Source of the DNA: Escherichia coli
GTDB taxonomy: Bacteria; Pseudomonadota; Gammaproteobacteria; Enterobacterales; Enterobacteriaceae
Length of the DNA: 3,595 nt
Strand: one strand, 5' to 3'
Assembly (NCBI RefSeq): GCF_003334305.1
Contig: NZ_QOWS01000052.1
The translations under genes were made by a program, and so were the position numbers. Shown here piece by piece: positions 1-3,344 of this stretch (position 1 is the first letter of the stretch; each line of letters begins with the position of its first letter). Under the pieces are notes generated by a model. The model was not told where the DNA came from, did no database searches, and was given only the letters and a program-made list of their open reading frames with translations.

Positions 1-135
1 TTACATAAGATCATTGATACTCAACGTATCGACATGATCATTGTTGATGAAGGCATTCCTGCGGATAGTCTGGAAGGCTTGCGAAAGGCTGGGGTTGAAG
101 TGATTCTGGTCGGGGAGCTCGCGTCTTCGCTGTGA
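1..135 (+). CDS. agaR: 3' end (last 44 codons plus TGA) of a DeoR-family sugar-responsive transcriptional repressor, AgaR-like; 5' part lies upstream of the window
   Basis: Frame 1 is open from base 1 to TGA at 133-135 and reads [44 protein letters not shown], a typical C-terminal end of a DeoR-type effector domain. The symbol rests on memory of E. coli AgaR and on convergent synteny with a garD-like gene; not verified by search. Confidence 0.55.
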
Positions 136-197: not shown

Positions 198-1354
198 TCA
201 GGCCACCGGTGCCGGGTTAAACACTGCCAGCTGGTTATGCAATCCCCATTGATCCGAGATGGTTTTCTTCTTCCCGCTGGCGACGTCGAGAATAAAGTGG
301 AACAACTTCCAGCCCACCTCTTCAATGGTCTCTTCGCCGGTAGCGATAGTGCCTGCGTTAATATCCATTAAATCAAACCAGTGGTTCGCCAGCCCGGTGC
401 GGGTCGCCATTTTAATGACGGGTACCTCCATCAGGCCGTACGGCGTACCACGGCCGGTCGTAAACACTTGCACGGTGATACCCGAAGCCACCTGTTGCGT
501 GCCACAGACAAAATCGCTGGCTGGCGTCGCGGCGTAAATTAATCCGCGTTTAGTCGGGTGTTGACCGGGCGACAGCACTTCAACAAGTGCGGTTTTACCC
601 GATTTAGCAATGGAGCCGAGTGCTTTCTTTACCACGTTGGCGAGGCCGCCCTTTTTGTTGCCCGGCGAAGGGTTGGCGCTGCGGTCGGTTTTGCCCATAT
701 CGGGATAGTTATCGTATCAGGCCATCTCTTCGAGCAGACGCCTGCCCACTTCTTCATTGATGGCGCGTGGCGTTAACAGATGAATGGCGTCGCGTACTTC
801 AGTGACTTCGGAGAACATCACCGTTGCGCCGCAGCGCACCAGCAGGTCAGAGTCGTAGCCGACAGCGCGGGGTTAGTGGTAACGCCGGAGAACGCGTCGC
901 TGCCACCGCACTGCATGCCCACCACCATCACTTCGCCACCGAAGTTTGGGTTCAGCGCAATATTATGGATGGTGCGAATTGGCACCACGGCGGCCGGTAC
1001 ATTAATCGCTACGCCACAGCCGTAGAGGTGGTTCAAGTCGACCACGCCGTCGATGCTCAGGTATTTCGGCAGCAGGTCGCGTTCGATAATTTTAACCACG
1101 TAGTCCTCAACGTCTGCCATGCAGTGCACGCTGGTGGTAATACCCAACAGGTTTTTGGTGCCCACGCTGCCGTCGGCGTTGCGGTAACCTTCAAAGGTGT
1201 AATCTTCCTGCGGCGGCTGCGGCTCCGGCACTTTGGTCGCCCGAGGCAGGGTGTTAAGCGGCGGCGCTTTCGGTAGCGTGACCGTGGATTCGTCGATCCA
1301 GCTGCCTTTGGCGACATCGCGTACCGTGTAACCGATAGCGAATGATTTCACCAT
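198..1354 (-). pseudogene. garD: Galactarate/altronate dehydratase family (GarD/UxaA-like) gene remnant, disrupted by an in-frame stop and a frameshift and apparently lacking N-terminal and internal segments
   Basis: ORFs 198-698 and 818-1450 on the - strand are in different frames. Both carry family motifs ([20 protein letters not shown]-terminal FNPAPVA; SWIDES, GYRNADGSVGTKN, HLYGCGV, MQCGGSDAFSG). Re-reading the gap in the downstream frame gives continuous protein-like sequence ([24 protein letters not shown]...LLEEMA) ending at an in-frame TGA (717-719 on +), six codons before MGKTD. The frame switch lies within 858-876. Sequence upstream of about 1355 has no family resemblance. Confidence 0.7.
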
Positions 1355-1516
1355 TATGAGGAAGGTTGTTATCCCTTTTCTGGCGTATTCGTCATTCCAT
1401 TCGTATCCCCGGTACCGGATGTTTATATCGTACAGTGCCGGTGCTGGCATGCTTTCCTGCAGGTCTGCACCGGTTTAACAAACAAAACTTAACAGAGTCT
1501 GAAGGAGTAGTATTCC

Positions 1517-1654
1517 GTGCAAATAACCGAAGCGTTACTTTCAGAGCCGGGAGATATCTGGCGTTTTGTTCAGCAGGCGGTGGACCACTGGCCGCGTCTG
1601 CTGGCAGTCCACTTCACGCGTCATTCGACCAGAGTAAATATTGATGATTACTAG
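1517..1654 (+). CDS. Candidate small ORF (45 aa, GTG start) with a strong Shine-Dalgarno; hypothetical
   Basis: GAAGGAG at 1501-1507 lies 9 nt before GTG at 1517. The ORF reads MQITEALLSEPGDIWRFVQQAVDHWPRLLAVHFTRHSTRVNIDDY with stop TAG at 1652-1654. It is below the length cutoff of the ORF track. No family recognised; it could be the N-terminal stump of a destroyed gene. Confidence 0.3.
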   Translation: MQITEALLSEPGDIWRFVQQAVDHWPRLLAVHFTRHSTRVNIDDY

Positions 1655-2127
1655 ATTCGTGTATTTTATCAGGCATTTTACTTGCGAATAAATCCCCTTG
1701 CTATCCAGCGAAACCACTCAGGTAGCTATTACCATATGTGGTAATACACTAGTTACAGGAAAAATATGCAAGTTCCGCAATACGTTGTGTGTTGCTCCTT
1801 AGCCAGGATCTTTTCTTCCATGCGAGATATGACAACAATTTTGAGGAAGGATGTTCGTAACTGGTAGAGTTACTACAACAAGCATGGGAGGCTCTGACTC
1901 TGACAGACATTGTACTGTGGAATGTTGTTACAGGTTGGGGCGGCAACCGTGCCAGGAGACCATGAGCCGTTCACGGCATTAAAGGCCACACTTCAGTCGT
2001 TTACATTCCCTATGGTGGCAGGCATCTTCCATTAAGGCGTCAGAGCGTTACCAACGTTATGTTGTCATGGCTCATCTTTCATAGTCGATGCTTATCTGGT
2101 GGCTGAAACTAGCCGCAGATAAAGAGT

Positions 2128-2560
2128 GTGAAGTTGATACCATGGAGTGGAGTGACGTGCAGGCAGGAGATTCGCTCTATGCAGGGTTGTGAGATGAATT
2201 CAAACCGGCTGGCAGCGCCAGTGATATTCGAAGATTCGTCCGGTTGTTACCCAGTATGCATTAAAAACCCAGACATTATGGACAATATAACGGCTTCTAC
2301 AACAAGGAAGTGCCTGTTTACCATCCGGGTGTAATGACTCACCTTTGTGGGCTTTTGCCCGTCGCGCTCTTAACGTTGAAGACATTCTCTGCCTGCTGAT
2401 TCAGGACTGCGACAAAAGCCATATCTGGCTACTGGTCAAGGATGACCAGCGTCTGGAGTAGGTGATAAGCCAAATAGATAAGCTGGAATATGTGGTGAAA
2501 GTGCAACGTAATCAGTCCAATCCGACGATGTTTAACAAGATTGTGGTGTTTTTTCAGTAA
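2128..2560 (+). other. Possible decayed + strand coding remnant convergent with the DeoR regulator gene; identity unknown
   Basis: An ORF at 2179-2334 (51 aa) has AGGAG 9 nt upstream of its ATG. A second frame is open 2291-2457 (…[31 protein letters not shown]), hits an in-frame TAG at 2458-2460, then continues [32 protein letters not shown] to TAA at 2558-2560, one base from the regulator stop at 2562-2564. Open-frame lengths are only weakly above chance. Confidence 0.2.
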
Positions 2561-2561
2561 G

Positions 2562-3344
2562 TCATTCGTCTTCTGAATCAGGTGTAATGATCTTTACAGA
2601 ACCATTCTGGCAGTGCGTAACATAATCTGCCGGTAACGGACGATCGCTAATCAGAACGTCAAATGCAGAGATCGGTGCGAGGCTGGCAGAGGCCACTTCA
2701 TCGAACAACGCGTGGCGGGCGAGCAAAATTTTCCGTAGTCCACGGTTCATCGCTTTACGCTTAGTGGCAAGATCTTCAGGGTTAAACCAGCTGACGCCAA
2801 AGTGATTATGCACACCGCTGGCGGAAATAAATATTTTTCGCGGATTGAGAGAGTCTAATGGCGAAGAGTTACTGGCATCGTAAAAAGCATCACTTCTGGC
2901 ACGATACGTACCACCACAAAGTATTGCTGTTACATTAGGCTTTTCATTCAACGCAACAAAGACGCGATGTGAGTAACAGATGCCGGTGAAGGTGATTGCA
3001 TCCGGGATCATGCTTATAACGAGTGGTATCTCCTGGCCATTATCAAAGAAGATCAGATCATTTTCATTAACCATTCCGGCAGCCAGAATTGCAATAGGTA
3101 AGTCATCACGATGATTTTTTGGAACGTCATGGATTACTGGCATGGATGGCGCGGGTTTATTCACCATTACAATATAGCCACCCAGTAGGGTCAGTGGCAG
3201 AGGTTCATCTTCCTGATGGAGATCGCGACGAATAGTCATTACAGAAACTTCCAGCATTCGCGCTGCGTCTTTCAAATGGATTCTGTCGGTTTTCTTAAGC
3301 AGTTCCATCAAACGTCGGATACGCTCTTTTTGCTTCGTTTCCAT
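2562..3344 (-). CDS. ygbI: DeoR-family transcriptional regulator, 260 aa (N-terminal HTH plus DeoR C-terminal effector domain); YgbI-like
   Basis: Intact 261-codon ORF in the track; the likely true start is the ATG at 3344-3342, with GGAG 9 nt upstream on the - strand. HTH signature IHLKDAARMLEVSVMTIRRDL near the N-terminus and DeoR C-domain features (DLIFFDNG, AILCGGTY, KIFISASGVH, FDVLISD). The symbol is from memory of the E. coli YgbI N-terminus (METKQKERIRRL…) and is less certain than the family. Confidence 0.85.
   Translation of the reverse strand: METKQKERIRRLMELLKKTDRIHLKDAARMLEVSVMTIRRDLHQEDEPLPLTLLGGYIVMVNKPAPSMPVIHDVPKNHRDDLPIAILAAGMVNENDLIFFDNGQEIPLVISMIPDAITFTGICYSHRVFVALNEKPNVTAILCGGTYRARSDAFYDASNSSPLDSLNPRKIFISASGVHNHFGVSWFNPEDLATKRKAMNRGLRKILLARHALFDEVASASLAPISAFDVLISDRPLPADYVTHCQNGSVKIITPDSEDE

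Follow-up and report, generated by a model that had tools for sequence, protein, structure and literature searches.

Does a short open reading frame (ORF) that follows a strong ribosome-binding site amount to a gene of its own? The question is raised by a 45-codon ORF in a 3,595-nucleotide (nt) stretch of Escherichia coli DNA (assembly GCF_003334305.1, contig NZ_QOWS01000052.1), the whole of which we call the window. A preliminary description, made from the sequence alone, had suggested that this ORF may be either a genuine small protein or the N-terminal stump of a gene lost in the event that also truncated the dehydratase gene. We find, with a probability of roughly 93%, that the ORF is a non-functional remnant, an N-terminal stump that amounts to the first quarter of a pseudogenised gene of the UCP030791/PF27752 family. 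This reading is carried by homology through its stop codon, downstream lesions, a mosaic structure, an intact gene where other strains have this junction, and broken orthologous frames.

The reading frame and its initiation signals

The elements named in the preliminary description are all present in the sequence, with the Shine-Dalgarno motif GAAGGAG separated by the 9-nt spacer tagtattcc (1508-1516) from a GTG start at 1517 that opens 45 codons up to a TAG at 1652-1654. The feature is already known in RefSeq, where the Prokaryotic Genome Annotation Pipeline (PGAP) annotates 1517-1654 as the coding sequence (CDS) WP_001411495.1; this is a ‘hypothetical protein’ in one genome record and a ‘UCP030791 family putative phage-derived protein’ in the other (L001/L002). 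The peptide, MQITEALLSEPGDIWRFVQQAVDHWPRLLAVHFTRHSTRVNIDDY, is hydrophilic, charged and non-repetitive with no hydrophobic stretch, and the earlier judgement that it does not resemble a type I toxin, being neither hydrophobic nor of low complexity, is borne out; toxins of type I toxin-antitoxin systems are hydrophobic membrane-spanning peptides, which this is not, and no antisense or small RNA family of Rfam matches in the window.

We then asked how much the pattern itself is worth. Of 2000 shuffles of the window that preserve dinucleotides, 16.7% contain an AGGAG followed after 5-10 nt by a start codon and no fewer than 45 open codons, the mean being 0.19 such cases per window. A ribosome-binding site plus an ORF is by itself weak evidence, neither rare nor statistically striking. 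Gene status must rest on homology and on comparison between strains. The window holds a second AGGAG, with a 9-nt spacer and an ATG (2165/2179), which opens a 51-codon frame in debris (2165-2334); its enclosing ORF, 2128-2334, matches no family, and the case illustrates that such patterns arise here by chance.

Homology through the stop codon

A search of 5.8 billion proteins with the 45-amino-acid (aa) peptide returns 30 matches. Each carries PF27752 as its precomputed Pfam label and is only 24-78 aa long, and most are E. coli entries marked ‘partial’ or ‘hypothetical’. The peptide aligns with these 30 in phmmer at expectation values (E) of 1e-23 to 1e-4, similarity that places it in the family, and database relatives of comparable length are without exception fragments of this same pseudogene. 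The peptide alone belongs to no NCBIfam, Pfam or PHROGs family, and tblastn with it against 50,697 phage records finds no match, so that the ‘phage-derived’ label draws no direct support from that collection. A full-length relative emerges from tblastn against plasmids: plasmid A of strain C5 encodes an ‘inovirus-type Gp2 protein’ of 187 aa (WP_057697845.1). A search with this protein gives 331 relatives, typically 170-187 aa long. Names that PGAP assigns to full-length family members are ‘UCP030791 family putative phage-derived’, ‘inovirus-type Gp2’ and ‘YagK/YfjJ domain-containing’.

Aligned to the window by tblastn, the 187-aa protein matches in two segments with a joint E of 1e-30. Its residues 1-70 match 1517-1726, in frame and straight across the TAG, and residues 75-128 match 1738-1899, in another frame and across two more stops. 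The first 43-45 residues of the ORF are 77-81% identical to the full-length members used, which share its start codon. We called the lesions from a DNA alignment with three intact genes, read codon by codon (Table 1); homology ends after about 1955, so that the gene lacks some 100 nt at its end. Homologues of 170-187 aa thus align through the stop into degraded DNA, and this homology, together with the downstream lesions, makes the ORF the N-terminal stump of a pseudogene at about 1517-1955, the second of the two readings first proposed.

The conserved blocks of the family lead to the same place. A diverse alignment of the family (A4) contains three of them, QQAVDH(W/Y)PRL, PP.LLRWL.E and R.LLL..(N/Q)...HPR, and these do not lie in one frame in the window. 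Only QQAVDH[WY]PRL falls within the ORF, while PP.LLRWL.E and R.LLL..[NQ]...HPR are recognisable downstream in another frame, interrupted by the stops at 1750-1752 and 1858-1860. With its blocks out of frame, the window copy is a family pseudogene and not a functional member.

Two readings that dispense with a parent gene's protein can be judged at this point. In the first, the ORF is a chance frame behind a fortuitous Shine-Dalgarno-like sequence in non-coding island debris, in keeping with the 17% of shuffled windows that hold such a combination and with the lack of a Pfam, NCBIfam or PHROG match for the peptide alone. This is the least probable reading we weighed, and it is refuted by homology through the stop, by the start codon shared with full-length proteins that are 77-81% identical over the N-terminal part, and by the intact gene that this ribosome-binding site and start codon serve in strains ST70 and N39. 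In the second, 1501-1654 acts as RNA, be it a small RNA, a leader or an intrinsic terminator, and a single terminator-like hairpin at 1546-1562, followed by GTTTTGTT, could be read that way. One such hairpin is what chance supplies (shuffle mean 1.1), it lies within coding sequence conserved in intact homologues, and Rfam at E <= 1 over the window gave only a spurious miRNA match outside the region; we regard an RNA role as highly improbable, though less so than a chance frame.

Origin by recombination between family copies

The family is repeated in E. coli, with one or more copies in 3294 of 5426 complete genomes, a median of two and as many as seven. Copies on the ilvN side, which adjoin an ilvN pseudogene, DeoR and rbsK, were examined at four loci (L006, L007, L008 and L009). 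All four carry the TAG at codon 46, and the later lesions are common to L006, L007 and L008, which retain the downstream sequence; similarity of L009 stops at about window position 1745, beside genes of the IS21 insertion sequence (IS) family. The shared TAG and lesions identify the ilvN-side copy as an old pseudogene. Copies on the garD side lie next to the truncated dehydratase gene: that of strain 18AR0366 (L010) is near full length but frameshifted, and ST70 (L017) and N39 (L016) each hold an intact 170-aa gene (WP_001167450.1 and WP_001167426.1). These two strains have the same agaR/garD-pseudogene junction as the window and its exact ribosome-binding site, GAAGGAGTAGTATT(C/T)C GTG. The ST70 protein is identical to the window's first 34 residues, including Trp15, a position at which the family nearly always has Arg.

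A four-way alignment and counts of differences show where the two kinds of copy meet. The window equals ST70 over 1440-1619 with one mismatch, and equals the ilvN-side pseudogene of O104 over 1607-1960, again with one mismatch. The mosaic pattern of matches on either side of 1607-1619 makes the ORF a recombinant of an intact-type 5' end with a decayed 3' body. In the window's lineage, homologous recombination within the 13-nt block that both parents share there joined a garD-side copy to an ilvN-side copy. The garD-side copy contributed the promoter region, the strong ribosome-binding site, the GTG and some 30-34 codons, and the already decayed ilvN-side copy contributed codons 35-45, the CAG to TAG change, two frameshifts, two more stops and the truncated 3' end. 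The strong initiation context first noted is therefore real in itself, since the same site stands in ST70 and N39, and is an inheritance from the intact parent gene rather than an adaptation to the making of a small protein.

The recombination may have come about by deletion between direct repeats, by gene conversion or through imported DNA. A test of simple deletion found no ilvN-pseudogene/DeoR/rbsK locus in the roughly 100 kb downstream of the garD-side copy of 18AR0366, up to tRNA-Ser, a region that holds aryl-polyene, microcin H47/M, F1C fimbria and salmochelin genes. In this strain (L011/L013, NZ_CM132283.1 2855001-2954700) the garD/family-gene junction forms the distant border of a tRNA-Ser island some 85 kb long, whose cargo comprises salmochelin (iro), F1C fimbria, microcin H47/M, a hemagglutinin pseudogene and an aryl-polyene cluster. 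With family copies at island borders, recombination between them could swap or delete whole blocks of cargo.

The same junction bears on the suggestion that one event destroyed both this gene and the dehydratase gene. ST70 and N39 have the identical truncated junction next to an intact 170-aa gene, and the dehydratase truncation therefore predates, and is independent of, the loss of the family gene; that part of the original proposal fails.

The full-length UCP030791/PF27752 proteins (WP_001167450.1 of ST70, WP_001167426.1 of N39 and WP_057697845.1) share their start, ribosome-binding site and upstream block with the window, and their genes share its island context, with AlpA-type regulator genes, IS elements and pathogenicity-island cargo nearby. 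The window copy differs from them in stopping at codon 46 and in being frameshifted and stop-ridden from there to about 1955. The upstream block lies about 20-55 nt before the GTG and is kept even where the flanks diverge. It is a presumed promoter or operator of the family, perhaps an operator for the AlpA-type regulator that is sometimes encoded upstream; a sigma-70 promoter scan of 1300-2600 found no site.

Maintenance of the 45-codon frame

Conservation of frame and start signals at the orthologous locus across lineages, the mark of a small ORF that is kept for its product, is not what we find. The ilvN-side copy of O104:H4 and of strain 203740 has a 2-bp insertion that brings a stop at codon 23 and lacks a ribosome-binding site, that of clone D i14 has a TGA at codon 25, and none of these copies carries a PGAP annotation. 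In a close variant (P0002, 73 aa, on 44 contigs) the TAG has been lost to a 9-nt deletion. The near-exact ORF with its ribosome-binding site occurs in about 286-310 genomes, compared with 1611 that have the downstream locus 1950-2345, and an even-step sample of the ranking suggests that the most frequent allele is the disrupted one of O104 type. The peptide's final ten residues (RHSTRVNIDDY), which come from the decayed copy, deviate at the nearly invariant family positions L35, E39, G44 and Q45. The preliminary description had named lack of frame conservation in homologous regions as the finding that would tell against the ORF, and the frame is indeed not conserved there. It had also proposed a look for synonymous-biased substitutions; for all pairs, intact or decayed, the first 38 codons give a ratio of nonsynonymous to synonymous substitution rates (dN/dS, Nei-Gojobori) of 0.17-0.62, with small counts. 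A bias of this kind does not discriminate, as the copies diverged when they still belonged to intact genes.

Several observations nonetheless weigh against calling the stump an inert remnant. Its ribosome-binding site is near consensus; the ORF is intact and nearly invariant in about 300 genomes, but these are closely related at the locus and little time has passed; and pairwise dN/dS for the first 38 codons lies at 0.17-0.52, which mostly reflects the intact-gene history and is again non-discriminating. Translation and some residual function of the stump are possible. We consider that it may well be transcribed and translated, and that its product is probably unstable and without function.

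A genuine, selected small protein, in which the translated stump has a function of its own as a 45-aa product and might, for one, mimic the N-terminal strand-helix-strand of full-length paralogues in its cell and so disturb or modulate them, would make sense of the good spacing of the near-consensus ribosome-binding site, of the retained upstream block of the family, of an ORF that is intact in about 300 genomes and called as a CDS by PGAP, and of genomes that bear the family in a median of two copies, so that partners could exist. It is very unlikely all the same: other lineages have not kept the frame at the orthologous locus, where it is broken or has no ribosome-binding site, a close variant loses the stop by the 9-nt deletion, the last ten residues come from a decayed copy and depart from nearly invariant positions, relatives of this length are all fragments, and the peptide covers about a quarter of a single compact domain. 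An independent function of the stump keeps a small residual probability. A slightly less likely variant has the translated strand-helix-strand act in trans on full-length paralogues, for example as a dominant negative; if so, the 45-aa product could modulate an island-encoded Rep-like or palm-fold protein. We thus return to a non-functional N-terminal stump as the reading that accounts for the locus.

The parent family

Among 1.84 billion cluster representatives searched exhaustively with phmmer, only 54 clusters are related to the parent protein, many of them fragments. The family occurs in genomic islands of E. coli and other Enterobacteriaceae, sometimes just 3' of an AlpA-type regulator gene, and it matches no NCBIfam or PHROG model. 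Its full-length member in N39, WP_001167426.1, bears the name ‘peptidoglycan recognition protein family protein’, apparently a mis-annotation. None of the papers searched mentions UCP030791, PIRSF030791 or PF27752; in the literature retrieved, ‘inovirus Gp2 family protein’ serves as an annotation label in surveys of pheU/pheV/selC islands, with function unknown (PMC6174562).

A sequence search of the PDB returns only noise (Rab GTPases at E > 0.2), and Foldseek against the PDB gives nothing at E <= 0.001. Structural comparison of the parent model scores 9.1 with the palm of the hepatitis C virus NS5B polymerase, 8.3 with AbiA, 8.2 with SIRV1 ORF119, about 7 with GGDEF domains and 6.8 with the B19 NS1 nuclease domain. 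The parent is confidently predicted to adopt a palm or ferredoxin-like alpha/beta fold with about six strands, a predicted fold compatible with, and no proof of, the Rep-like ancestry implied by the ‘inovirus Gp2’ label. The likeness to palm and HUH-type domains (SIRV1 ORF119, the parvovirus NS1 nuclease, the polymerase/reverse-transcriptase palm and GGDEF) is at the level of fold only, at 4-8% identity, and none of their catalytic motifs was identified in the parent. In the model, residues 1-45 form a strand (2-8), a helix (11-24), a strand (27-36) and the first turn of a helix (44-66). The stump would hold only the first strand-helix-strand of such a domain, with one or two turns of the following helix, and at a quarter of a single compact domain would probably not fold by itself.

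YagK and YfjJ of the K-12 prophages CP4-6 and CP4-57 (PF11726, formerly ‘inovirus Gp2’) share PGAP names with the parent family and occupy a similar niche, yfjJ lying two genes downstream of alpA in CP4-57. Profile similarity to them is weak, spans parent residues 23-127 and makes for a marginal relationship. PF11726 reaches E = 0.037 on the parent reference and, among 22 members of the diverse alignment, E <= 0.001 in two and E <= 0.1 in six; the 45-aa peptide has no match to it even at E <= 10, the stump being too short for this test. With hhalign, the deeper alignment A4 gives E = 0.0025 at 12% probability against K-12 YfjJ, and the shallow alignment A3 gives nothing against K-12 YfjJ or a neighbouring bona fide YagK/YfjJ protein. 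In the low-confidence alignment the His-x-His of YfjJ (RHYHLIL) faces T-I-R in the parent, so that a HUH-type metal site is not evident there.

Genomic setting

The window is E. coli chromosomal DNA, 100% identical over 1356-2561 to several complete genomes, and the gene order in Table 1 follows the RefSeq annotation of two of these. Viewed over 45 kb, the surroundings are a mosaic genomic island that carries the fec operon and further cargo along with numerous IS remnants. The junction of the dehydratase pseudogene with island DNA is common to strains whose downstream gene is intact. The garD-like pseudogene measures 1170 nt in the window compared with 1397 nt in 18AR0366 and N39, and this shorter copy points to an extra internal deletion of about 230 nt beyond the shared N-terminal truncation, frameshifts and stop.

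The ilvN-like pseudogene is 85% identical to K-12 IlvN in amino acids and 90% in nucleotides, has a frameshift near 2354 and has lost its first 17 codons; PGAP names it ‘acetolactate synthase small subunit’ or ‘ACT domain-containing protein’, and we found no ilvB partner or remnant for it. The roughly 360 nt between the two pseudogenes (1956-2319) are without assignable homology; they contain no ilvB remnant, no likeness to DNA 3' of intact family genes and no ORF with an NCBIfam match, and are kept at >=99% in over 1100 E. coli genomes.

Table 1. Coordinates of the features in the window
Feature	Position	Strand	Basis or remark
agaR 3' end	1-135	+	RefSeq annotation
garD/UxaA-family dehydratase pseudogene	198-1367	-	N-terminus missing, frameshifted, internal stop
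Upstream block GTCTGCACCGG(Y)TT..AAC.AAA.T.AACAG	1463-1496	+	Invariant in all paralogous copies, intact and decayed
Shine-Dalgarno GAAGGAG	1501-1507	+	Read from the sequence; 9 nt before GTG
Whole pseudogene	1517-1955	+	tblastn and DNA alignment with three intact genes
45-codon ORF	1517-1654	+	GTG start, TAG stop; 45 aa; peptide MQITEALLSEPGDIWRFVQQAVDHWPRLLAVHFTRHSTRVNIDDY
Crossover interval	1607-1619	+	13-nt block GTCCACTTCACGC, the only sequence both parents share
Premature stop TAG	1652-1654	+	CAG (Gln46) in intact homologues
1-nt deletion (frameshift)	near 1725	+	Against intact genes
TAG from TGG	1750-1752	+	Against intact genes
TAA from CAA	1858-1860	+	Against intact genes
1-nt deletion (frameshift)	near 1899	+	Against intact genes
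6-nt deletion	near 1945	+	Against intact genes
ilvN-like pseudogene	2320-2560	+	Residues 18-96 of K-12 IlvN; frameshifted
DeoR-family regulator	2562-3344	-	RefSeq annotation; followed by rbsK and fucP

Discussion

Pseudogenisation can leave short ORFs that are annotated as ‘hypothetical proteins’ in bacterial genomes. The stump resembles such leftovers in its retained parental initiation signals, premature stop, lineage-restricted spread and variable annotation, and differs from the usual case in being a recombinant of an intact and a decayed paralogue rather than a simple nonsense allele of a local gene. Within its mosaic genomic island it amounts to ordinary pseudogene debris. The result bears chiefly on annotation, in that WP_001411495.1 should be flagged as a pseudogene fragment. 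More generally, a strong ribosome-binding site before a short ORF can be mere inheritance from a dead gene, and homology through the stop together with comparison of the same locus across strains settles such cases quickly.

What is mildly notable here is the precisely mappable recombination between paralogues and the uncharacterised parent family with its predicted palm fold, the latter being the sole part with open biology. Repeated copies of the family gene act as recombination substrates that reshuffle the genomic islands of E. coli, and in this instance the crossover can be mapped to 13 nt.
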